The position numbers and the translations under genes are program-made. The notes beneath the pieces are model-generated. The model did not search any database and was not told the DNA's origin. It worked only from the letters and a program-made list of their open reading frames with translations. This document shows, piece by piece, positions 1 to 12,115 of a stretch of DNA of 13,400 bases; position 1 is the stretch's first letter, and the number at the start of each line of letters is the position of its first letter. This stretch comes from a virus. The DNA is taken from the UHGV virus genome UHGV-0365817; one strand, 5' to 3'.

Positions 1-28
1 AATCCCTACCCGAAATAATACTTATTAG

Positions 29-55
29 AAAAAAACCAGCCTTTGGGGAGGCTGG
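29..55 (-). terminator. Rho-independent terminator, candidate late terminator tR' downstream of Q
   Basis: 7-bp inverted repeat ccagcct/aggctgg (36..42 and 49..55) with a 6-nt loop, followed on the minus strand by a 7-T run (29..35). It lies about 100 nt beyond the Q stop, where the Q-dependent terminator is expected. Confidence 0.55.
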
Positions 56-155
56 CTAAATCAGGAAACAAGCTGTTATATGATAATAACTACGTTGCGA
101 TTCCAACATTTAAAATGTTAGACTAATGACAATCAGACAGCAACTTTTCCTTTAA
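56..155 (-). promoter_or_regulatory. Candidate late promoter pR' / Q-utilisation (qut) region
   Basis: Placed by position only, between the Q stop and the downstream terminator. Only weak -35/-10-like hexamers (TTGCTG ... TAACAT on the minus strand) were seen. Confidence 0.3.
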
Positions 156-533
156 TTATTTCGAACAATCAGCATCCATCTCCAATCGGAGATCCAACAC
201 CATCAGCATACCCTCCACTACGCCCTCAGCTTTCTGAAGCATCCTGCCAACCCAACAATCAGATCGCCCATGCTTACGTGCAAGCGCCATAAAAGTCATG
301 CCGCCGACATAATAGTCCACCAATAAATCATGCAAATCGCTGTTGTTCTTTTTCAGACGGGCCATGCACCCGCAAATGATCATCGCGTCATCGTCACAAC
401 ATTGTGGGCGAGATTTTACTTTTGAAGGAATTAATCCCTTAAAACCGGCGGCAATGGACGACCAGGTCACATCTTCATGATTATTAGCCGCCCACGCTCC
501 CCAACGCTCAAGAACCATCTGAATATCACGCAT
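156..533 (-). CDS. Q: Late-gene antitermination protein Q, phage-82/DLP12 QuuD type (not the lambda Q family)
   Basis: ORF 156..548; translation ([22 protein letters not shown]...[12 protein letters not shown]...) recognised as the short Q family of phage 82 and E. coli DLP12. The track start at 548 is TTG; the ATG at 533 has a GGAG Shine-Dalgarno 7-8 nt upstream. Confidence 0.8.
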
Positions 534-618
534 CAACTTACTCCACAAAACTCAGACCAGAACGCCAATTACAAGCAAAAATCAACAAAACAGTATTAGT
601 TGATTGTTATCTCTGACT

Positions 619-759
619 TCATACTCCTGCTCCTGTCAGTGTTTTGGCGTAATTCTTCAGTATTCGGTAATCGGTCAAAACAGAACCGGGGAAACGATAT
701 AAGCGCAGACGCCCCCAGCGGTGGCGAAGAAGTTCTGCCATATTAAACTCAAACATCAT
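619..759 (-). CDS. ylcG: Small YlcG-like protein (46 aa), translationally coupled to rusA
   Basis: 46-codon ORF ([25 protein letters not shown]...) absent from the track because it is under 60 aa. Its ATG overlaps the rusA stop in an ATGA arrangement, and rusA-ylcG-Q is the order I recall in DLP12. Confidence 0.5.
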
Positions 760-1118
760 TCATTCCCCATTTCGGTGATGGTCAGTTCCAGCCTCCCACC
801 TTTGGTAACAGGCATCTTCACAACGCGGTAATCAACGACCTGAGCATCATCCAGCCAGAAACCTGCTTTAGTGAGTGCGTCAAAAGCGGCTTTTTGCAGA
901 TTATCCAGGTCACGGCGACGGCGATCCGGCATGTGGCACTCAATGCGGATTTTCACAGGCATAGCCAGGCCGATATCTAGCATTGCGTTTTTAATGATTC
1001 GGGCGACGTTATCGCGGTATGCCTGCCCCTCTGCGCTGATGTGCGTGCGTCCGCGATTATGGCGGTAATAGCGATTATTGCTCGGAGGCCAGGGTAATGT
1101 GATGCTGTAGGTATTCAC
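756..1118 (-). CDS. rusA: Crossover junction endodeoxyribonuclease RusA (Holliday junction resolvase)
   Basis: 120-aa ORF whose translation ([24 protein letters not shown]...[13 protein letters not shown]...) I recognise as RusA. The start codon is GTG, preceded by a GAGGGGG Shine-Dalgarno. Confidence 0.9.
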
Positions 1119-1324
1119 GCCTTAATAACCCCCTCTTTCAGCCAGATAACCTGTGTTCTCGCCATACCTTCCAGCGCGCATTCTTTTGCATATGCAGCAT
1201 CGACTTGCTTGGCATGCCCTTTACCGGCAATCTTCTGTATGCGCTAAACCTAGATAGAATCCACTCTGTGCACATTGAAGCCCGCTCTATGCTTCCTTTC
1301 AGGTATTGAAGGGATTGAGATGGG

Positions 1325-1672
1325 CTAAGCATTATTGGCCTCCTGCATCAGGAGAAAGACAATCATGGCGGCGCGGAGAGGTCTGGTATCAAATATTGGG
1401 CTTACGCCTTTTGCATCCACACACCATTCAGTTAACTGGTCTAAGATAGAAACCCTGTATTTCTCAATAATCGGCCATGAAGCGCTCGGATCATTGCAGT
1501 AGTCAGGCAAATGATTTAATGGCTCAAAAGTTGTATCAGCATTTCCGTAATACCATTTGTTGGTGTTATTCCCTGATGTTTCCGGTTTACTTGCCCAAAG
1601 GCCTTTAAAAATTATGTCTCCTACCATTCTGTTAATTTCAAAATCACTTAACTGTGAATAATCCATTGTCAT
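1325..1672 (-). CDS. Conserved nin-region hypothetical protein (about 115 aa)
   Basis: ORF 1325..1708; the internal ATG at 1672 overlaps the ninE stop (ATGA), so 1672 is the likelier start. No family recognised from sequence. Confidence 0.55.
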
Positions 1673-1845
1673 TTCCTCGCACGATATCTTAGCCACCGGA
1701 TATCCCACAGGTGAGCTGTGTAATTGAAGGTTTTTACGTCAGATTCTTTTGGGATTGGCTTGCGTTTATTTCTGGAGCGTTTCGTTGGAAGGTATTTGCA
1801 GTTTTCGCAGATGATGTCGGTGAAACTTCGTCGCTGTCGCCTCAT
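1669..1845 (-). CDS. ninE: NinE-like small protein (58 aa)
   Basis: The internal Met of track ORF 1669..1935 gives [58 protein letters not shown], which resembles lambda NinE as I recall it. Its ATG overlaps the dam stop (ATGA). Confidence 0.65.
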
Positions 1846-2369
1846 GCCGCCCTCCTGACGCCCTGCCCGATCGCCATCAATGCCGCTTTGGATACGGTAG
1901 TAAACATCCGTCGAGGACTGATGAACGGTCGCCAAATCAGCAGCATGGAGCCTTTGCTGTTTCCCTTCTTCTCCAGCCCTGTCGATGGTTCGATAAAATT
2001 AATCCGTCCATCAGTGATAATGCGAACTTCGTCGACACTCTCCAGAGCCTTGCTGAACCATCCGACTGACATATCCTCTGGCACAAGCATAACTACCGTC
2101 TGTCGCTGTTGTATGCACTGCTCAGCAGCTTTTTCCACCCACGGCCTGATATTGCTGTACGGTGGGTTATTCCAGATTGCACCGTGGCTTACCCACTCAG
2201 AATTGAGCGCGTCGTCGGCCTCAGTTAGCCAGTGAGCACACAGAGCATTTTTGTCGCTCGCTGCCGAATCCAGCCAGAATCCAAACTCAATATCCAGTGC
2301 ATCAAAAAGCCAAAGCGGCGTTTGCCAGCAGTCCTTGTCGTGTGCTGGCGTATTTGATTTGATAGTCAT
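1842..2369 (-). CDS. dam: Phage DNA N6-adenine methyltransferase (Dam-like orphan methylase)
   Basis: ORF 1842..2429 contains the NPPY catalytic motif (...[18 protein letters not shown]...) typical of N6-adenine MTases. Start set at the Met of [19 protein letters not shown] (2369), which overlaps the ninB stop (ATGA). Confidence 0.85.
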
Positions 2370-2806
2370 GCAGCCCGATCTCCCCATCTCGCTTTCCACT
2401 CCAGAGCCAGTCTCGCTTCGTCTGACCACTTAACGCCACGCTCTGTACCGAATGCCTGTATAAGCTCTAATAGCTCCGCAAATTCGCCTACACGCATCCT
2501 GCTGGTTGACTGGCCTATTACCACAAAGCCATTCCCGGCAAGGTTAGGAACAACATCCTGCTGCTTTAATGCTGCGGTAAACACACACTTCCAGCTTTCT
2601 GCATCCAGCCAGCGACCATGCCATTCAACCTGACGAGAGACGTCACCTAAGCAGGCCCATAGCTTCCTGTTTTGGTCTAAGCTGCGGTTGCGTTCCTGAA
2701 TGGTTACTACGATTGGTTTGGTTGGGTCTGGAAGGATTTGCTGTACTGCGTGAATAGCGTTTTGCTGATGTGCTGGAGATCGAATTTCAAAGGTTAGTTT
2801 TTTCAT
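2366..2806 (-). CDS. ninB: Recombination protein NinB (Orf family)
   Basis: Translation from MKKLTFEIRSPAHQQNAIHAVQQILPDPTKPIVVTIQERNRSLDQNRKLWACLGDV... matches lambda NinB as remembered. The ATG at 2806 has a GGAGAGGGAAG Shine-Dalgarno. Confidence 0.9.
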   Translation of the reverse strand: MKKLTFEIRSPAHQQNAIHAVQQILPDPTKPIVVTIQERNRSLDQNRKLWACLGDVSRQVEWHGRWLDAESWKCVFTAALKQQDVVPNLAGNGFVVIGQSTSRMRVGEFAELLELIQAFGTERGVKWSDEARLALEWKARWGDRAA

Positions 2807-2822
2807 GACTTCCCTCTCCCCC

Positions 2823-2854
2823 AAATAAAAAGGCCTGCGATTACCAGCAGGCCT
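2823..2854 (-). terminator. Rho-independent terminator between ren and ninB (tR2 position)
   Basis: 7-8 bp inverted repeat (a)ggcctgc / gcaggcc(t) with an 8-nt loop, followed on the minus strand by TTTTATTT. Its position matches lambda tR2 upstream of the nin region. Confidence 0.6.
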
Positions 2855-2879
2855 GTTATTAGCTCAGTAATGTAGATGG

Positions 2880-3170
2880 TCATCTTTTAACTCCATATAC
2901 CGCCAATACCCGTTTCATCGCGGCACTCTGGCGACACTCCTTAAAAACCAGGTTCGTGCTCATCTTTCCTTCCCGTTCTTCCCTGGTAGCAAACCGGTAA
3001 TACACCGTTCGCCAGACCTTACCTTCGATAACCAGAAGACCTGCCCGTGCCATTTTAGCCGCGGCCTGATTTATGCTGGTTACTGTTGCGCCTGTTAGCG
3101 CGGCAACGTCCGGCGCACAGAAGCTATTATGCGTCCTCAGGTAATGAATAATTGCCTCTTTGCCCGTCAT
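2880..3170 (-). CDS. ren: Ren protein
   Basis: 96-aa ORF (MTGKEAIIHYLRTHNSFCAPDVAALTGATVTSINQAAAKMARAGLLVIEGKVWRTVYYRF...) recognised as lambda Ren. Its start overlaps the P stop. Confidence 0.9.
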   Translation of the reverse strand: MTGKEAIIHYLRTHNSFCAPDVAALTGATVTSINQAAAKMARAGLLVIEGKVWRTVYYRFATREEREGKMSTNLVFKECRQSAAMKRVLAVYGVKR

Positions 3171-3868
3171 ACACTTGCTCCTTTCAGTCCGAACTTAGCT
3201 TTGATTTCTGCGATCTTCGCCAGAGCCTGTGCACGATTTAGAGGTCTACCGCCCATGACAGGAAGTTGTTTTACTGGTTCAGGGATCGCCTCACCACGGT
3301 TAATTCTCGCAGTCATATGGACAAGCTCATCTGCGGCCTTACGGCGTAATTCCGCATCAGTAAGCGCATTGGCCCGCATGTTCTGATACAGGTTGGTAAT
3401 CAGCCAGTAGTGCGCGTTTGATTTCCACGGATAAGACTCCGCATCCGGATACAGGCCTCGCTTCCGGCAATACTCGTAAACCATATCAACCAGCTCGCTG
3501 ACGTTTGGCAGTCCGGCGGTAACGGATGCTTCTTCCCGGCACCATGCAACAAACTGCCCGGGTGATGGCAGAAATGGTCGATTCTGCCGACGGGCTACGC
3601 GCATTCCTGCGTTAACCTGTTCCATCGTGGTGATCCCGTTTTCCCGAAAAGCCAGAACCCACTGGCGACGGATTTCGTTCACTTCGTTCTGGTCACGGTT
3701 AGCCAGGCTCGCAGGGAAAGTTGCCAGTAACTGGCTGAACACACCGTTGATGATCTGCGCTACCTGCTGTACCTGCGGCTTTTCGTCGTACTGTTCCGGC
3801 ATGTTGTTGGCGATCCGACGCATCTGCTCACGGTCAAAGTTAACCATCTGTGCGGCGATGTTTTTCAT
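3167..3868 (-). CDS. P: Replication protein P (DnaB helicase loader)
   Basis: 233-aa ORF with translation recognised as lambda P (MKNIAAQMVNFDREQMRRIANNMPEQYDEKPQVQQVAQIINGVFSQLLATFPASLANRDQ...). Its start overlaps the O stop (ATGA). Confidence 0.95.
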   Translation of the reverse strand: MKNIAAQMVNFDREQMRRIANNMPEQYDEKPQVQQVAQIINGVFSQLLATFPASLANRDQNEVNEIRRQWVLAFRENGITTMEQVNAGMRVARRQNRPFLPSPGQFVAWCREEASVTAGLPNVSELVDMVYEYCRKRGLYPDAESYPWKSNAHYWLITNLYQNMRANALTDAELRRKAADELVHMTARINRGEAIPEPVKQLPVMGGRPLNRAQALAKIAEIKAKFGLKGASV

Positions 3869-4764
3869 AGATCCACCCCGTAAATCCAGTCTGTGTTTGT
3901 CAGGTCGAGTTTTGGTTTGCTGGCTGTCACGCCTGCCTGTTGCTTGTTACGGTTGATTTCGAGTTGGGTCCACTTATCGCGGAGTTTGGCCGGGCTCAGC
4001 ACGTTACCGGACCAGAAGTTGTCCTGGCATGCCCAGCGGAACAGCACGCACATGTCGCGGTGGTTACGTCCGTCACGTTCACGCATCAGGCGGATATCGT
4101 TAGCCCACCCAGCAAAATTCGGTTTTCTGGCTGATGGTGCGATAGTCTTCACCATGTCAAACATCCACTCTGCGGCGGTCAGGTCTTCTGCTGTCCCCCA
4201 CTTGCTGCCGCTCTGAATTGCAGCATCCGGTTTCACCACAGAAAGGTCGTTTTCTGGCTGGTCAGAGGATTCGCCAGAATTCTCTGACGAATAATCTTTT
4301 CTTTTTTCTTTTGTAATAGTGTCTTTTGTGTCCCCCTGTTTTGAGGGATAGCAATCCCCCAATTTGAGGGATGTTTTATCCCTCGTTTTAGGGGATTTTC
4401 CCTCGTTTTGAGGGATGCACCATTCTGAGATGTTTTTATTTGGTCCAAACATGCCGCCTTGCTGCTTGATAATATTCATTCTGACGAGTTCTAACTTGGC
4501 TTCATTGCACCGTTTGACGGGTAACTTTGTAATCTCGCTAAGTTGAGAATCGGTGATTCTGTCCATTGGTTTATTCCACCCATAGGTTTTACGCAGAATG
4601 GCAAGCAGCACTTTAAACTGTCGCTTGGTCAGATCTGCGCCCGAATAAGCCTCAAGCAGCATATTTGATAGTCTGGCGTAACCATCATCGAGATCTGCCA
4701 CATTACGCTCCTGTCCGGCAAAGTTACCTCTGCCGAAGTTGAGTATTTTTGCTGTATTTGTCAT
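3865..4764 (-). CDS. O: Replication initiator protein O
   Basis: 299-aa ORF with translation recognised as lambda O (MTNTAKILNFGRGNFAGQERNVADLDDGYARLSNMLLEAYSGADLTKRQFKVLLAILRKTYGW...). The ori iterons are embedded in the coding sequence. Confidence 0.95.
   Translation of the reverse strand: MTNTAKILNFGRGNFAGQERNVADLDDGYARLSNMLLEAYSGADLTKRQFKVLLAILRKTYGWNKPMDRITDSQLSEITKLPVKRCNEAKLELVRMNIIKQQGGMFGPNKNISEWCIPQNEGKSPKTRDKTSLKLGDCYPSKQGDTKDTITKEKRKDYSSENSGESSDQPENDLSVVKPDAAIQSGSKWGTAEDLTAAEWMFDMVKTIAPSARKPNFAGWANDIRLMRERDGRNHRDMCVLFRWACQDNFWSGNVLSPAKLRDKWTQLEINRNKQQAGVTASKPKLDLTNTDWIYGVDL
4290..4416. other. Origin of replication (ori-lambda type): four iterons plus adjacent AT-rich region
   Basis: Four about 19-bp dyad-symmetric iterons of the form tccc(c/t)c...ttttgagggat at 4331..4350, 4354..4372, 4378..4396 and 4399..4416, next to an AT-rich stretch (about 4290..4325). 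This is the arrangement known for ori-lambda inside O. Confidence 0.85.
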
Positions 4765-4767
4765 AAT
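4739..4767 (+). promoter_or_regulatory. pO promoter for oop RNA
   Basis: TTGAGT (-35, 4739..4744), 17-bp spacer, CATAAT (-10, 4762..4767), 7 bp upstream of the oop 5' end. Antisense to the O start and cII 3' end. Confidence 0.55.
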
Positions 4768-4774
4768 GACTCCT

Positions 4775-4851
4775 GTTGATAGATCCAGTAATGACCTCAG
4801 AACTCCATCTGGATTTGTTCAGAACGCTCGATTGCCGCCGGGCGTTTTTTA
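4775..4851 (+). ncRNA. oop: oop antisense RNA with its terminator (lambda t0/to)
   Basis: Sequence gttgatagatccagtaatgacctcagaactccatctggatttgttcagaacgctcgattgccgccgggcgttttttatt is nearly identical to the lambda oop/t0 sequence I know. It ends in a GC-rich stem plus T6 and is antisense to the 3' end of cII. Confidence 0.65.
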
Positions 4852-5090
4852 TTGGTGAGAATCGCAGCAACTTGTCGCGCCAATCGAGCCATGTCGTCGT
4901 CAACGACCCCCCATTCAAGAACAGCAAGCAGCATTGAGAACTTGGGAATCCAGTCTCTCTTCCACCTGCTGATCTGCGACTTATCAACTCCCACAGCTTC
5001 CGCTGTCTTCTCAGTTCCAAGCATTGCGATTTTGTTAAGCAACGCACTCTCGATTCGTAGTGCCTCGTTGCGTTTGTTTGCACGAACCAT
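4797..5090 (-). CDS. cII: Transcriptional activator CII
   Basis: Translation from the ATG at 5090 (MVRANKRNEALRIESALLNKIAMLGTEKTAEAVGVDKSQISRWKRDWIPKFSMLLAVLEWGV...) matches lambda CII. The track ORF carries a 20-codon upstream extension that is not part of CII. Confidence 0.95.
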   Translation of the reverse strand: MVRANKRNEALRIESALLNKIAMLGTEKTAEAVGVDKSQISRWKRDWIPKFSMLLAVLEWGVVDDDMARLARQVAAILTNKKRPAAIERSEQIQMEF

Positions 5091-5100
5091 ATGTAAGTAT
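5068..5100 (+). promoter_or_regulatory. pRE promoter region with CII-binding TTGC-N6-TTGC repeat
   Basis: TTGCGTTTGTTTGC at 5068..5081 on the plus strand (antisense to the cII 5' end), with AAGTAT-like -10 downstream. This matches the known CII-activated pRE architecture. Confidence 0.6.
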
Positions 5101-5169
5101 TTCCTTAGATAACAATTGATTGAATGTATGCAAATAAATGCATACACCATAGGTGTGGCTTAATTGGAT

Positions 5170-5201
5170 GCCCTTTTTCAGGGCTGTGATGTGTAAGAGC
5201 G
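5170..5201 (-). promoter_or_regulatory. nutR (boxA + boxB) N-utilisation site
   Basis: On the minus strand, boxA CGCTCTTA (5201..5194) is followed by boxB hairpin GCCCTGAAAAAGGGC (5184..5170), immediately downstream of the cro stop. Confidence 0.8.
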
Positions 5202-5208
5202 GTGTTAT

Positions 5209-5418
<210 letters not shown>

Positions 5419-5433
5419 TTAGTACATGCAATT

Positions 5434-5503
5434 ATTATCACCGCTAGAGGTAAAACAGTCAACACGCACGGTGTTAGATATTTATCCCTTGCGGTGATAG
5501 ATT
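5434..5503. promoter_or_regulatory. Right operator OR1-OR2-OR3 with divergent promoters pR (towards cro) and pRM (towards cI)
   Basis: Three 17-bp operator sites: OR1 5436..5452, OR2 5460..5476, OR3 5483..5499. pR on the minus strand has -35 TTGACT (5462..5457) and -10 GATAAT (5439..5434). pRM on the plus strand has -35 TAGATA (5475..5480) and -10 TAGATT (5498..5503), with the cI ATG at 5510 (leaderless). Confidence 0.9.
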
Positions 5504-5506
5504 TAA

Positions 5507-6223
<717 letters not shown>

Positions 6224-6341
6224 CCACAATACAACCTTGTTGTCGCAAAAAGATCGCATATGCGATTGTTTATTAGAAATAGAAATCGCCATATAGGCGA
6301 ATAGTCGATCTCAGCGCATAACATAAGGAAATCAATAACAT

Positions 6342-7247
6342 ATGCCAAATTTACCGATGGGCGGATCGCAGGGTGAATTACCCTTAGTACCTACAGTAGA
6401 AGTTGTTGCTGATGGCATTCCTATGGGGGTGCTTAATGATGGAACCCCTTATCTAACTCTTTACGGTTTAGCCAAATTATGTGGCATAGATGAAGCACCT
6501 CTTCGAATGTTTACATCTAACTGGGAGACTGAAAAAAATAAGCCAAGAGGACAAAAAGTAGCTGCATACTTAGCTGAGAAAGGATTTAACAACGTTGACC
6601 GACTGTATACCCGCGTCATAAATAGCTCAAACGTTGAAACACATGCTTATCCTGACTATGTTTGTATGGCTATCCTCCGTTACTACGCTCTAGATGCCAC
6701 CAATTTTGATAGGTCAGTCGCAATAGGTAATTTTGTTCGCTTGGCTGAGTACACGCTTAAGCGAATGATTTATGAAAAGTCAAATTACAACCCAAATGCT
6801 TCAATAGATATCTCATTCGAGAACTATAGAGCAAGGATTAAGCTAAACGATCAGATACCGACAACTCATTTTGCAGTATTCAGAGAGATAGCTGACATTG
6901 CCATGAACCTGATCGGAGGAGGATTCCCAATGGATGACACCACATCTTTGGATGGAAGTGTTGGAATTCACTGGGGAAAGTATTGGACAGCTAATGGGCT
7001 ATCTGAGAAATTCGGGGAAAGGGTGCAGTACCCACATCTATTCCCCGAAAATTACAGGCAGTCAGCTGCAAATAAGCATATAACAGCTTGGATTTATCCT
7101 ATTGAGGCACTTGGCGTGTTCAGAAAATGGCTACACGATAATTACGCAATGGAAAAACTGCCAAATTACCTTGGGAACAAAAAGATTAGTAATGCCTCCG
7201 AGCTATTAGAGTCGATAAAAAAACCAGCACTCCCAAATAAGCATTGA
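6342..7247 (+). CDS. Hypothetical 301-aa protein in the rexAB slot; candidate phage-exclusion / abortive-infection protein with a possible KilA-N/Bro-N-like N-terminus
   Basis: Long ORF with an ATG at 6342 preceded by AAGGAA. It is not RexA or RexB by sequence. It looks more AT-rich by eye than the flanking cI and N genes. The N-terminal segment (...DGTPYLTLYGLAKLCGIDEAPL...) resembles the conserved core of KilA-N/Bro-N DNA-binding domains. It is followed by its own terminator. Confidence 0.8.
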   Translation: MPNLPMGGSQGELPLVPTVEVVADGIPMGVLNDGTPYLTLYGLAKLCGIDEAPLRMFTSNWETEKNKPRGQKVAAYLAEKGFNNVDRLYTRVINSSNVETHAYPDYVCMAILRYYALDATNFDRSVAIGNFVRLAEYTLKRMIYEKSNYNPNASIDISFENYRARIKLNDQIPTTHFAVFREIADIAMNLIGGGFPMDDTTSLDGSVGIHWGKYWTANGLSEKFGERVQYPHLFPENYRQSAANKHITAWIYPIEALGVFRKWLHDNYAMEKLPNYLGNKKISNASELLESIKKPALPNKH

Positions 7248-7258
7248 TCTCCACCACA

Positions 7259-7569: not shown

Positions 7570-7679
7570 AGCATTCAAAGCAGAAAGCTTTGAGTAGCGC
7601 GAAATGCAGCTGCAAGACAGCAACCGTGGGGATAAGCATCACGGCGCGTTACTCAAAGCTAACTGACAGGAGAATCCAG

Positions 7680-8003
7680 ATGGATGCACAAACACGCCGC
7701 CGCGAACGTCGCACAGAGAAACAGGCTCAATGGAAAGCAGCAAATCCCCTGTTGGTTGGGGTAAGCGCAAAACCAGTTAACCGCCCTATTCTCTCGCTGA
7801 ATCGCAAACCGAAATCACGAGTAGAAAGCGCACTGAATCCGATAGACCTTACGGTGCTGGCTGAATACCACGAACAGATTGAAAGCAACCTGCAACGTAT
7901 TGAGCGCAAGAATCAGCGCACATGGTACAGCAAGCCTGGCGAACGCGGCATAACATGCAGAGGACGCCAGAAAATTAAGGGAAAATCGATTCCTCTTACC
8001 TAG
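7680..8003 (+). CDS. N: Antitermination protein N
   Basis: Translation from MDAQTRRRERRTEKQAQWKAANPLLVGVSAKPVNRPILSLNRKPKSRVESALNPIDL... matches lambda N, including the arginine-rich boxB-binding motif. The ATG at 7680 has an AGGAGA Shine-Dalgarno; the track ORF extends in-frame upstream to 7590. Confidence 0.9.
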   Translation: MDAQTRRRERRTEKQAQWKAANPLLVGVSAKPVNRPILSLNRKPKSRVESALNPIDLTVLAEYHEQIESNLQRIERKNQRTWYSKPGERGITCRGRQKIKGKSIPLT

Positions 8004-8555
8004 TTACTTAGATATTGGCCTTGGCTTTATCTCAATATTATATGGATCATAGCTGGCAACTAATTCAGTCCAGTAAATATCCTCAATAGGGAATAATATA
8101 TGCTTCCCGTTCCATCGGGAAAAAGTTTTGTTCAACACACCAAGCTCAATCAACTCACTAATGTATGGGAATTGTTTTGATGTAACCACATACTTCCTGC
8201 CTTCATTAAGGGCTGCGCACAAAACCATAGATTGCTCTTCTGTAAGGTTTTGAATTACCGATCGCACTTTATCGTTTTGCATCTTAATGCGTTTTCTTAG
8301 CTTAAATCGCTTATATCTGGCGCTGGCAATAGCTGATAATCGATGCACATTAATTGCTAGCGAAAATGCAAGAGCAAAGACGAAAACATGCCACACATGA
8401 GGAATACCGATTCTCTCATTAACATATTCAGGCCAGTTATCTGGGCTTAAAAGCAGAAGTCCAACCCAGATAACGATCATATACATGGTTCTCTCCAGAG
8501 GTTCATTACTGAACACTCGTCCGAGAATAACGAGTGGATCCATTTCTATACTCAT
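8004..8555 (-). CDS. sieB: Superinfection exclusion protein B (SieB-like membrane protein)
   Basis: ORF convergent with N and abutting its stop, the position and size I recall for lambda sieB. Hydrophobic N-terminal segments (IVIWVGLLLLSP, VFVFALAFSLAINV) fit a membrane protein. The track start at 8558 is TTG; an ATG follows at 8555. Confidence 0.7.
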   Translation of the reverse strand: MSIEMDPLVILGRVFSNEPLERTMYMIVIWVGLLLLSPDNWPEYVNERIGIPHVWHVFVFALAFSLAINVHRLSAIASARYKRFKLRKRIKMQNDKVRSVIQNLTEEQSMVLCAALNEGRKYVVTSKQFPYISELIELGVLNKTFSRWNGKHILFPIEDIYWTELVASYDPYNIEIKPRPISK

Positions 8556-8682
8556 CAAACTGTAGGGGTTGTAATAGTTTATCCGATTTCTCGCTGTAGG
8601 GGTACACGAGAACCACCGAGCCTGATGTGGTTAAAAGACAGGCACAATCTTTACTACCGCAATCCACTATTTAAGGTGATAT

Positions 8683-8769
8683 ATGGAAGAAGAATTTGAA
8701 GAGTTCGAAGAGCATCCGCAGGATGTAATGGAACAGTACCAGGACTATCCGTATGACTACGACTATTGA
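8683..8769 (+). CDS. Small acidic ORF (28 aa), orf28-like
   Basis: ATG at 8683 preceded by AAGGTGAT; translation MEEEFEEFEEHPQDVMEQYQDYPYDYDY. It overlaps the ral start and sits where lambda has a small ORF upstream of ral. Confidence 0.45.
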   Translation: MEEEFEEFEEHPQDVMEQYQDYPYDYDY

Positions 8770-8953
8770 TAAGAATCAATGGTGTGGACAATTCAAGCGA
8801 TGCAATGGATGCAAGCTGCAATCGGAATGCATGGTTAAGCCTGAAGAAATGTTTCCTGTAATGGAAGATGGGAAATATGTCGATAAATGGGCAATACGAA
8901 CGACGGCAATGATTGCCAGAGAACTTGGTAAACAGAACAACAAAGCTGCCTGA
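8753..8953 (+). CDS. ral: Restriction alleviation protein Ral
   Basis: 66-aa ORF (MTTTIDKNQWCGQFKRCNGCKLQSECMVKPEEMFPVMEDGKYVDKWAIRTTAMIARELGKQNNKAA) recognised as lambda Ral. Confidence 0.9.
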   Translation: MTTTIDKNQWCGQFKRCNGCKLQSECMVKPEEMFPVMEDGKYVDKWAIRTTAMIARELGKQNNKAA

Positions 8954-9089
8954 TAGTGGCCTTTATTTTTGGCATAAATAACAGAATAAACACTGCACTG
9001 TGTATTCATTCCAACGAGTGAATACACGGAGCAATGTCGCTCGTAACTAAACAGGAGCCGACTTGTTCTGATTATTGGAAATCTTCTTT

Positions 9090-9116
9090 GCCCTCCAGTG
9101 TGAGGGCGATTTTTTA
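9090..9116 (+). terminator. Rho-independent terminator-like hairpin between ral and ea10
   Basis: gccctc / gagggc 6-bp stem (9090..9095 and 9102..9107) with a 6-nt loop, followed by GATTTTTTAT. It lies in the pL operon, where the N-suppressed tL2-type terminators are expected. Confidence 0.5.
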
Positions 9117-9135
9117 TCTATGAGGATATGAATAG

Positions 9136-9504
9136 ATGTCAAACATCAAAAAATACATCATTGATTACGACTGGAAAGCATCAATAGAAATTGAAATCGA
9201 TCATGACGTAATGACAGAGGAAAAACTTCACCAGATTAATAATTTCTGGTCAGACTCTGAATACCGACTCAATAAACACGGCTCTGTATTAAATGCTGTA
9301 TTAATCATGCTGGCGCAACATGCTCTGCTTATAGCAATTTCAAGCGACTTAAATGCATATGGTGTTGTGTGTGAGTTCGACTGGAATGATGGAAATGGTC
9401 AGGAAGGATGGCCTCCAATGGATGGTAGCGAAGGAATAAGAATTACCGATATCGATACATCAGGAATATTTGATCCAGATGATATGACTATCAAAGCCGC
9501 CTGA
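9136..9504 (+). CDS. ea10: Ea10 protein (early-left ORF)
   Basis: 122-aa ORF (MSNIKKYIIDYDWKASIEIEIDHDVMTEEKLHQINNFWSDSEYRLNKHGSVLNAVLIMLAQ...) recognised as lambda Ea10. Confidence 0.85.
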   Translation: MSNIKKYIIDYDWKASIEIEIDHDVMTEEKLHQINNFWSDSEYRLNKHGSVLNAVLIMLAQHALLIAISSDLNAYGVVCEFDWNDGNGQEGWPPMDGSEGIRITDIDTSGIFDPDDMTIKAA

Positions 9505-9576
9505 GCGCGGCGTTACCGCATACCAATAACGCTTCACTCGAGGCGTTTTTCGTTATGTATAAATAAGGAGCACACC

Positions 9577-9741
9577 ATGCAATATGCCATTGCAGGGTGG
9601 CCTGTTGCTGGCTGCCCTTCCGAATCTTTACTTGAACGAATCACCCGTAAATTACGTGACGGATGGAAACGCCTTATCGACATACTTAATCAGCCAGGAG
9701 TCCCAAAAAATGGATCAAACACTTATGGCTATCCAGACTAA
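9577..9741 (+). CDS. cIII: CIII protein (FtsH inhibitor that stabilises CII)
   Basis: 54-codon ORF absent from the track (under 60 aa): ATG at 9577 preceded by AAGGAG; translation [54 protein letters not shown] matches lambda CIII. Confidence 0.85.
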   Translation: MQYAIAGWPVAGCPSESLLERITRKLRDGWKRLIDILNQPGVPKNGSNTYGYPD

Positions 9742-9874
9742 ATTCACTATCGCCACTTTTATTGGCGATGAAAAGATGTTTCGTGAGGCCGTCGACGCTT
9801 ATAAAAAATGGATATTAATACTGAAACTGAGATCAAGCAAAAGCATTCACTACCCCCCTTCCCTGTTTTCCTAA
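9710..9874 (+). CDS. kil: Kil protein (host cell-division inhibitor)
   Basis: [47 protein letters not shown]... begins inside the end of cIII and overlaps the gam start, as in lambda. Here the frame runs 7 codons longer than the lambda Kil I recall. Confidence 0.7.
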
Positions 9875-10224
9875 TCAGCCCGGCATTTCGCGGACGATAT
9901 TTTCACAGCTATTTCAGGAGTTCAGCCATGAACGCTTATTACATTCAGGATCGTCTTGAGGCTCAGAGCTGGGCGCGTCACTACCAGCAGATCGCCCGTG
10001 AAGAGAAAGAGGCAGAACTGGCAGACGACATGGAAAAAGGCCTGCCCCAGCACCTGTTTGAATCGCTATGCATCGATCATTTGCAACGCCACGGGGCCAG
10101 CAAAAAAGCCATTACCCGTGCGTTTGATGACGATGTTGAGTTTCAGGAGCGCATGGCAGAACACATCCGGTACATGGTTGAAACCATTGCTCACCACCAG
10201 GTTGATATTGATTCAGAGGTATAA
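9808..10224 (+). CDS. gam: Gam protein (RecBCD inhibitor)
   Basis: 138-aa ORF ([61 protein letters not shown]...) recognised as lambda Gam. Confidence 0.9.
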
Positions 10225-10229
10225 AACGG

Positions 10230-11015
10230 ATGAGTACAGCACTCGCAACGCTGGCTGGGAAGCTGGCTGAACGTGTCGGCATGGATTCTGTCGACCCACA
10301 GGAACTGATCACCACTCTTCGCCAGACGGCATTTAAAGGTGATGCCAGCGATGCGCAGTTCATCGCATTGCTGATCGTCGCCAACCAGTACGGCCTTAAT
10401 CCGTGGACGAAAGAAATTTACGCCTTCCCTGATAAGCAGAACGGCATTGTTCCGGTGGTGGGCGTTGATGGCTGGTCCCGCATCATCAATGAAAACCAGC
10501 AGTTTGATGGCATGGACTTTGAGCAGGACAATGAATCCTGTACATGCCGGATTTACCGCAAGGACCGTAATCATCCGATCTGCGTTACCGAATGGATGGA
10601 TGAATGCCGCCGCGAACCATTCAAAACCCGCGAAGGCAGAGAAATCACGGGGCCGTGGCAGTCGCATCCCAAACGGATGTTACGGCATAAAGCCATGATT
10701 CAGTGTGCCCGTCTGGCCTTCGGATTTGCTGGTATCTATGACAAGGATGAAGCCGAGCGCATTGTCGAAAATACTGCATACACTGCAGAACGTCAGCCGG
10801 AACGCGACATCACTCCGGTTAACGATGAAACCATGCAGGAGATTAACACTCTGCTGATCGCCCTGGATAAAACATGGGATGACGACTTATTGCCGCTCTG
10901 TTCCCAGATATTTCGCCGCGACATTCGCGCATCGTCAGAACTGACACAGGCCGAAGCAGTGAAAGCTCTTGGATTCCTTAAACAGAAAGCCACTGAGCAG
11001 AAGGTGGCAGCATGA
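10230..11015 (+). CDS. bet: Bet (Red-beta single-strand annealing protein)
   Basis: 261-aa ORF ([66 protein letters not shown]...) recognised as lambda Bet. Confidence 0.95.
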
Positions 11016-11692
11016 TACCGGACATTATCCTGCAGCGTACCGGGATCGACGTGAGAGCTGTCGAACAGGGGGATGATGCATGGCACAAATTACGGCTCGG
11101 CGTCATCACCGCTTCAGAAGTTCACAACGTGATAGCAAAGCCCCGCTCAGGAAAGAAGTGGCCTGACATGAAAATGTCCTACTTCCACACCCTGCTTGCC
11201 GAGGTTTGCACCGGTGTGGCTCCGGAAGTTAACGCTAAGGCGCTGGCCTGGGGAAAACAGTACGAGAACGACGCCAGAGCCCTCTTTGAGTTCACTTCCG
11301 GCGTGAATGTTACTGAATCCCCGATCATCTATCGCGACGAAAGTATGCGCACCGCCTGCTCTCCCGATGGTTTATGCAGTGACGGCAACGGCCTTGAACT
11401 GAAATGCCCGTTTACCTCCCGGGATTTCATGAAGTTCCGGCTCGGTGGTTTCGAGGCCATAAAGTCGGCTTACATGGCCCAGGTGCAGTACAGCATGTGG
11501 GTGACGCGAAAAGATGCCTGGTACTTTGCCAACTATGACCCACGAATGAAGCGTGAAGGCCTGCATTATGTCGTGGTTGAGCGGGATGAAAATTACATGG
11601 CGAGTTTTGACGAGATGGTGCCGGAGTTCATCGAAAAAATGGACGAGGCACTGGCTGAAATTGGTTTTGTATTTGGGGAGCAATGGCGATGA
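11012..11692 (+). CDS. exo: Exo (lambda exonuclease, Red-alpha)
   Basis: 226-aa ORF ([65 protein letters not shown]...) recognised as lambda Exo. Its start overlaps the bet stop. Confidence 0.95.
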
Positions 11693-11871
11693 AGCATCCT
11701 CGCGATAATATCCGGGTAGGCGCGATCACTTTCGTCTACTCCGTTACAAAGCGAGGCTGGGTATTTCCCGGCCTTTCTGTTACCCGAAATCCCCTGAAAG
11801 CACAGCGGCTGGCTGAGGAGATAAATAATAAACGGGGAGCTGTATGCACAAAGCATCTCCTGTTGAGTTAA
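11689..11871 (+). CDS. Small early-left protein, orf60a-like
   Basis: [60 protein letters not shown]; position and sequence match lambda orf60a as recalled. The track ORF begins two codons upstream, overlapping the exo stop. Confidence 0.7.
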
Positions 11872-12035
11872 GAACGAGCATTGAGATGGCACATAGCCTC
11901 GCTCAAATTGGAGTCAGGTTTGTGCCAATACCAGTAGAAACAGACGAAGAATTTCACACGTTAGCCGCATCCCTTTCACAAAAGCTGGAAATGATGGTGG
12001 CGAAAGCAGAAGCAGATGAGAGAGACCAGGTATGA
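11844..12035 (+). CDS. Small early-left protein, orf63-like
   Basis: 63-aa ORF ([63 protein letters not shown]) in the position of lambda orf63. Confidence 0.7.
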   Translation: MHKASPVELRTSIEMAHSLAQIGVRFVPIPVETDEEFHTLAASLSQKLEMMVAKAEADERDQV

Positions 12036-12115
12036 CAACCACTGAATGCATTTTTCTGGCAGCGGGCTTCATATTCTGTGTGCTTATGCTTGCCGACATG
12101 GGACTTGTTCAATGA
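12032..12115 (+). CDS. Candidate 27-aa hydrophobic micro-protein, translationally coupled on both sides
   Basis: ATG at 12032 overlaps the orf63 stop (ATGA) and its TGA overlaps the next ATG at 12112 (ATGA). Translation MTTTECIFLAAGFIFCVLMLADMGLVQ is consistent with a single transmembrane helix. Confidence 0.35.
   Translation: MTTTECIFLAAGFIFCVLMLADMGLVQ

Follow-up and report, generated by a model that had tools for sequence, protein, structure and literature searches.

An orphan PF05869 adenine methyltransferase identical to the VT2-Sakai dam product stands in place of ninC and ninD in a lambda-like mosaic element

What gene has taken the place of ninC in the nin region of an otherwise lambda-like element, and what might it do in an E. 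coli host that already methylates GATC through Dam? The question is raised by an open reading frame in the virus genome UHGV-0365817, of which a stretch of 13,400 nucleotides (the window) was analysed. The frame lies on the minus strand at 1842–2369, runs from an ATG at 2369–2367 to a TGA at 1844–1842, and comprises 528 bp, or 175 codons. A mechanical list of open reading frames had begun it at a GTG at 2429, giving 195 residues; the ATG at 2369 is the start in all homologues and in the RefSeq and GenBank annotations. Its upstream neighbour is ninB (2366–2806, minus strand; PF05772, E = 2.3e-54), encoding the Orf recombination mediator, which is 100% identical to lambda NinB, and its downstream neighbour is ninE (1669–1845, minus strand; PF05322, E = 3.4e-42). 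A sequence-only reading of this DNA had described tight coupling of the gene to both neighbours through ATGA overlaps, and the two overlaps can be read directly: tcat on the plus strand at 2366–2369, ATGA on the coding strand, joins the ninB stop to the methylase start, and tcat at 1842–1845 joins the methylase stop to the ninE start in the same way. A GATC site also lies at 2377–2380, 8–11 nt upstream of the methylase ATG and directly 3′ of the likely ribosome-binding sequence GGGGAG, with one base common to both (GGGGAGATCGGGCTGCATG); its position there is probably a coincidence.

To place the gene relative to lambda, the window was compared by BLAST with lambda 31000–45500. Window positions 2366–6219 (ninB through cI) aligned with lambda 41084–37231 at 98.8% identity, and positions 7654–12040 (N through orf63) aligned with lambda 35386–31000 at 98.3%, so that the cI-cro-O-P-ren-ninB and N-to-exo blocks are 98–99% identical to those of lambda. 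The Cro, O, SieB and NinB proteins are identical to their lambda counterparts, P, Ren and Bet differ by one residue each, and cI and Exo by six each. A third match joined window 1672–1838, within ninE, to lambda 42263–42097 at 95.2% nucleotide identity. Within the lambda stretch searched, no match was found for window 1–1671 (NinX, RusA, YlcG and Q), 1839–2365 (the methylase) or 6220–7257 (the BstA region). Since the lambda order is ninB, ninC (873 nt), ninD (174 nt), ninE, the methylase gene stands exactly in place of ninC and ninD, with its junctions at gene boundaries; the earlier placement of the gene where lambda has ninC onward thus holds.

Beyond ninE, the non-lambda part of the nin region starts at a ninX-family gene (DUF2591; 1325–1666, minus strand; PF10765, E = 2.9e-16; PHROG 444), which is followed on the same strand by the Holliday-junction resolvase gene rusA (756–1118; NF007305 RusA, E = 2.6e-84; PF05866), a small ylcG-family gene (619–759; NF033498, E = 5.7e-22) and a gene for an antiterminator Q of the PF06530 family (156–533; E = 2.5e-51). 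The Q product is about 125 residues long, in keeping with a 378-nt RefSeq annotation at the corresponding place in the closest genome, and its region did not match the part of lambda that holds Q, a 624-nt gene encoding 207 residues. We take lambda Q to belong to a different Pfam family from the PF06530 protein. Both parts of the earlier description of the element are borne out by these comparisons, namely a mosaic of lambda-type immunity, replication and Red genes and, beyond the methylase, a non-lambda module of RusA, a YlcG-like protein and a short Q. In the closest genome, that of E. coli LR-17-1, the block lies within a lambdoid prophage, flanked by an integrase and, on the opposite side, by head and tail genes.

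Several further features of this mosaic were observed. The ninX-rusA gap (1119–1332, minus strand) contains only a 64-residue open reading frame without a family match, and in the closest genome RefSeq shows, immediately upstream of rusA, 90 nt of a DUF1364 gene that lacks its N-terminus; the gap looks like a scar left when the nin region recombined earlier. To the left of Q, E. coli LR-17-1 (NZ_AP027479.1, 3216091–3221386) carries lipocalin-family, YbgA-family and HTH protein genes as cargo between Q and the lysis genes, and an IS3 insertion interrupts its lysis cassette; this Q-to-lysis region is beyond the end of the window. Between cI and N, where lambda has rexA and rexB, the window carries on the plus strand (6342–7247) a gene for a 301-residue protein that matches the BstA abortive-infection protein (PHROG 6287, E = 5e-135; PADLOC BstA, E = 3.6e-106). 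This match in the rex position, together with the absence of a lambda match at 6220–7257, argues that another prophage-encoded defence gene, the putative BstA, has taken the place of Rex in this phage with lambda immunity. The cI repressor itself (5510–6223, plus strand) differs from that of lambda at six residues (T3A, K71N, G125S, R129K, D139G and S157Y), and since identity to lambda is otherwise 98.8% for Cro and the whole DNA block from cI to ninB, it is a natural variant of lambda immunity.

The product of the gene between ninB and ninE had been read as an N6-adenine methyltransferase with an NPPY motif, and the profile HMM assignment proposed as a check on that reading gave a consistent answer. 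The protein matched Pfam PF05869 ('DNA N-6-adenine-methyltransferase (Dam)') with E = 6.4e-65 and 218.4 bits over profile positions 1–167 of 169, where the curated cut-off is 28.1 bits, and the NCBIfam equivalog TIGR01712 ('phage N-6-adenine-methyltransferase') with E = 9.7e-80 and 265.9 bits over 1–165 of 165, where the cut-off is 97.05 bits. PHROG 111 ('DNA methyltransferase') was also matched, with E = 8.6e-88. Because both the PF05869 and the TIGR01712 matches are full length and well above their curated cut-offs, membership of this family is far beyond chance as judged from the amino-acid sequence. The enzyme is also, as had been suggested, an orphan. Its best PADLOC matches were 'orphan methyltransferase' (oMTase) models, and profile searches found no nuclease gene adjoining it, its neighbours being NinB, NinE, NinX and Ren, of which NinB and NinE are not nuclease partners. 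RefSeq and phage records annotate the gene in the same context.

Conserved methyltransferase motifs, whose absence from a full alignment would have told against this assignment, are present. The (D/N)PPY motif IV of N6-adenine methyltransferases occurs as NPPY at residues 68–71. In a 21-sequence alignment NPPY, D34, T17 and P18 are invariant and W15 nearly so, and a 91-sequence alignment agrees, the N, P and P of NPPY being invariant there and Y71 nearly so; the latter alignment spans 55–86% identity, the profile search for homologues having given only close relatives among the matches listed. More distant relatives were brought in by aligning the window protein and its VT2-Sakai counterpart with the Dam enzymes of phages T1 (M.EcoT1Dam) and HP1 (orf13) and two others, and here NPPY, D13, W15, T17, P18, L33 and D34 were all invariant. 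The N-terminal WQTP and L-D-x-A-A segments are likewise conserved, and are presumed to contribute to cofactor binding. T1 Dam and HP1 Dam, which are 33% and 38% identical to the window protein, respectively, share with it the PF05869 family, NPPY, D34, W15/T17/P18 and other positions, and orphan status. T1 Dam differs in having a 40-residue N-terminal extension and two insertions, and the genomic contexts differ as well, T1 being a virulent phage and HP1 a P2-like temperate phage. T1 Dam is described as GATC-modifying (PMC4996451), and HP1 Dam is named among phage Dam-like enzymes (PMC7556043).

Comparison with annotated phage proteins provided the most specific information on the enzyme. All 175 residues of the window protein are identical to those of VT2-Sakai BAA94133.1 ('dam', H0105), which is annotated as 'dam: DNA N-6-adenine-methyltransferase; similar to 933W L0094, HP1 Orf13 and T1 M.T1', and the protein is also identical to RefSeq WP_000153280.1 (E. 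coli LR-17-1) and YP_009910092.1 (phage ev243). The VT2-Sakai gene likewise lies between ninB and ninE, and there too the start and stop codons overlap. The two phages differ around it: VT2-Sakai has its own immunity, HK022-like O and P genes and an H-19B-type Q followed by stx2, whereas the window has lambda immunity, replication and Red genes with the RusA, YlcG and PF06530-Q module.

We take the name M.EcoVT2Dam to denote the BAA94133.1 gene. We considered whether VT2-Sakai H0075, which lies near int, might be a second methylase and the real M.EcoVT2Dam, and ruled this out as H0075 is a DUF551 gene. Because BAA94133.1 is encoded by the only VT2-Sakai gene annotated 'dam', we infer that M.EcoVT2Dam is the window protein, an identification that also draws on the distinction made in the literature between this enzyme and M.EcoGV. 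A passage of PMC6602927, citing Radlinska & Bujnicki 2001, refers to M.EcoVT2Dam 'of E. coli prophage VT2-Sa' as an orphan methylase 'known to target 5'-GATC-3'', and treats it as distinct from M.EcoGV, the other Stx-phage Dam homologue; M.EcoVT2Dam is also named among phage Dam-like enzymes in PMC7556043. By virtue of its identity to the VT2-Sakai dam product, the window protein would thus be an enzyme with reported GATC methylation.

A structural model was used to examine the fold. The AlphaFold model from the single sequence was too poor (pLDDT 43.5), whereas one based on the alignment of 91 homologues reached a pLDDT of 88.2 and a pTM of 0.86. In a Foldseek search of the latter model against the PDB the top matches were all N6-adenine methyltransferases, and the fold is predicted to be that of a class-I (Rossmann-type) methyltransferase. 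The closest solved fold was PCIF1/CAPAM (E = 2e-4 to 9e-4, TM 0.52–0.61, 13–15% identity), followed by TrmM, E. coli Dam, CamA and METTL16. Among predicted viral structures, phage N-6-adenine methyltransferases matched best (E = 1.6e-21, TM 0.86), with giant-virus PCIF1-like proteins lower among the matches. A sequence search of the PDB recovered no relative of the methylase, its only matches being unrelated proteins at E values of at least 0.2, and no solved structure of the PF05869 family was detectable by sequence in that search. As an observation in its own right, the catalytic domain of PCIF1/CAPAM, a eukaryotic mRNA cap m6Am methylase, lies nearer to this PF05869 model than does any DNA methylase. 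The PCIF1/CAPAM cap-specific adenosine N6-methyltransferases are otherwise different, being eukaryotic RNA enzymes three times larger with extra domains, and the resemblance is one of fold only.

That the closest solved folds, PCIF1/CAPAM (E = 2e-4, TM about 0.6) and TrmM, belong to RNA m6A enzymes raises the possibility that the physiological substrate is RNA, either rRNA or mRNA, rather than DNA. There is a precedent among Stx prophages, as a methylase annotated as a GATC DNA methylase, M.EcoPA8orf6770P (M.EcoGV-like), has been reported to prefer 16S rRNA when acting with a partner protein (PMC10810198). This enzyme resembles the window protein in being an orphan adenine methylase carried by lambdoid Stx prophages with a GATC-specific annotation, but its gene is another one. 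It is an MT-A70 enzyme with a DPPW motif, encoded as gp5 of its prophage, and depends on the product of the adjacent, co-transcribed gp6. The window protein carries NPPY where that enzyme has DPPW, has PF05869 as its only Pfam match, with no match to the MT-A70 profile, and is encoded between ninB and ninE. An identification of the window gene with the 16S rRNA methyltransferase gene of Gong et al. (PMC10810198), which is an MT-A70 gene with DPPW, gp5, next to gp6 and gp7, was accordingly ruled out. Structural likeness among N6-adenine methylases, moreover, cannot separate RNA from DNA substrates, and both T1 Dam and the protein identical to that of the window are reported to methylate DNA at GATC, with HP1 Dam being named among phage Dam-like enzymes. 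We therefore regard an RNA substrate as very improbable and retain the reading of the enzyme as a GATC DNA methylase.

The model also bears on specificity, as it shows no separate target-recognition domain. This feature and the very small size of the protein are what would be expected to favour a relaxed-specificity or non-specific adenine methylase, one that would act in many sequence contexts and protect broadly against host restriction. The cloned prophage enzyme M.Btr190III, which shares 35% identity with T1 Dam, methylated GATC and also showed significant off-target activity; in its lysogen it appeared to be inactive or silent (PMC4996451). Its GATC methylation is independent support for that target in the family. 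Other phage adenine methylases are non-specific (PMC3299994; PhiOS31_p25, PMC7556043). However, the off-target activity of the T1 Dam relative was seen only on over-expression (PMC4996451), and the protein identical to that of the window is reported to be GATC-specific (PMC6602927). No family link to the non-specific enzymes surfaced either, as judged by the text of the Hia5/Hin1523 paper, in which the VT-2 and HP1 Dam enzymes go unmentioned. Relaxed specificity is thus improbable, and methylation of GATC remains the reading that we favour.

The description of the enzyme as 'Dam-type' stands only in part. It holds for the name and for the reported GATC target, and does not hold for kinship with the host enzyme. 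E. coli Dam, an alpha-class enzyme of PF02086, is like the phage enzyme an orphan with a class-I methyltransferase fold that is reported to make m6A at GATC. No sequence relationship between the two was detectable, as PF02086 (MethyltransfD12) gave no match to the methylase at E values up to 0.01, and the structural likeness is weak, with Foldseek matches to E. coli Dam chains at E = 0.03–0.1, TM 0.32–0.35 and 12–13% identity. The phage enzyme has 175 residues versus 244–254 in the solved Dam chains, and so is about 100 shorter. Neither sequence nor close structural similarity thus supports kinship with E. coli or T4 Dam: the methylase works like host Dam but, given the absence of PF02086 and the weak fold similarity, falls outside the family to which host Dam belongs.

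We found the gene to be widespread. Over window 1300–2900 the DNA is 99.9% identical to phage ev243 and 99.0–99.8% identical to some fifteen further records, mostly of lambda-like phages, all of which, ev243 included, annotate the run Ren, NinB, methyltransferase, NinE, NinX. A translated search of 50,697 phage records recovered a relative in 1,908, with at least 95% protein identity in 244. At thresholds of at least 95% nucleotide identity and at least 80% coverage, the 528-bp gene was found in 1,540 of 5,426 complete E. coli genomes, more than a quarter of them; when full-length matches were sampled across the ranking, 11 of 11 were named 'phage N-6-adenine-methyltransferase' and lay between NinB and NinE. 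Homologues at 57–86% identity occur in Pectobacterium, Serratia, Edwardsiella, Providencia, Yersinia, Photorhabdus, Xenorhabdus and others.

This distribution bears on whether the gene might be an inactive passenger that persists only through linkage to the nin region. The presence of host Dam makes its activity look redundant, and lambda itself has no methylase gene. The gene does not look like a passenger, however: the open reading frame is intact and full length, all residues invariant in the family are present, and the window and VT2-Sakai genes, which come from unrelated phages, differ at 6 of 528 nucleotides, all of them silent, without a single amino-acid change. Its retention at 95% identity or more in the 1,540 complete E. 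coli genomes, and the homologues at 57–86% protein identity in many other Enterobacterales, point the same way. Since only silent changes and invariant motifs are found, an inactive passenger is extremely improbable, and the gene more plausibly encodes a functional GATC methylase.

When might such an enzyme be made? A strong hairpin resembling an intrinsic terminator lies on the coding strand at 2854–2831 (2831–2854, minus strand), between ren and ninB and thus upstream of the ninB-methylase-ninE run, within the block that is 98.8% identical to lambda; its stem is 8 bp long, 6 of these being GC pairs, and is followed by a T-run with the sequence TTTTTATTT. We take this to be the position of lambda tR2. 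No promoter-like site was found near the methylase gene by a consensus scan, the promoter and terminator scans being consensus matches only, with frequencies no higher than in shuffled sequence. Because of the tR2-like terminator upstream, the lack of a promoter-like site of its own and the ATGA overlaps, which tie its translation to that of ninB and ninE, we propose that the methylase belongs to the pR operon and would be a delayed-early product dependent on N antitermination. It would then be made in lytic growth or after induction and would be silent in a stable lysogen. The most likely reading is that the methylase is expressed only in lytic growth and does not reprogramme the lysogen. An effect on host epigenetic regulation, which the sequence-only reading had raised as one possible role, is unlikely on these grounds, since silence in the lysogen argues against it and host Dam, acting on the same GATC, would mask such an effect in any case.

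In a paper from the group that cloned the enzyme, what phage Dam enzymes do is called 'still not well understood' (PMC7556043). GATC is neither avoided nor enriched in the window, where 50 sites are observed and 51.8 are expected from base composition. In the mechanism that we propose, the enzyme would pass the methyl of S-adenosyl-methionine on to the adenine of GATC, using the NPPY catalytic loop of its Rossmann-type fold, and its most likely role is to complete the methylation of GATC sites in phage DNA that replicates too fast for host Dam. Full methylation would make progeny and packaged DNA safe from enzymes that cut unmethylated GATC, and would spare phage DNA the action of MutH and SeqA on hemi- or unmethylated sites. 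There is also a slim chance that the enzyme has a role beyond duplicating host Dam, as is suggested by its constant coupling to the recombination mediator NinB and by an RNA m6A enzyme being its nearest solved fold; such a role might involve single-stranded or recombination-intermediate DNA, or RNA, as substrate, or the timed shielding of recombination and replication intermediates from MutH, SeqA or GATC-sensing defence. Overall, we consider it highly probable that the gene encodes a GATC methylase of the M.EcoVT2Dam type, made as a delayed-early product, that keeps replicating phage DNA methylated.

The exact protein has already been named, annotated and reported as characterised, and nothing in its finding is new; it already carries a REBASE-style name, an accession in RefSeq and a reported specificity, NCBI has a curated model of its family, and the result carries little weight as a discovery. 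What it offers is caution in annotation. The PF05869 gene is not to be confused with the Stx-phage MT-A70 methylase, which has recently been reassigned to rRNA, and the label 'Dam' denotes here a functional analogue, and not a relative, of host Dam.
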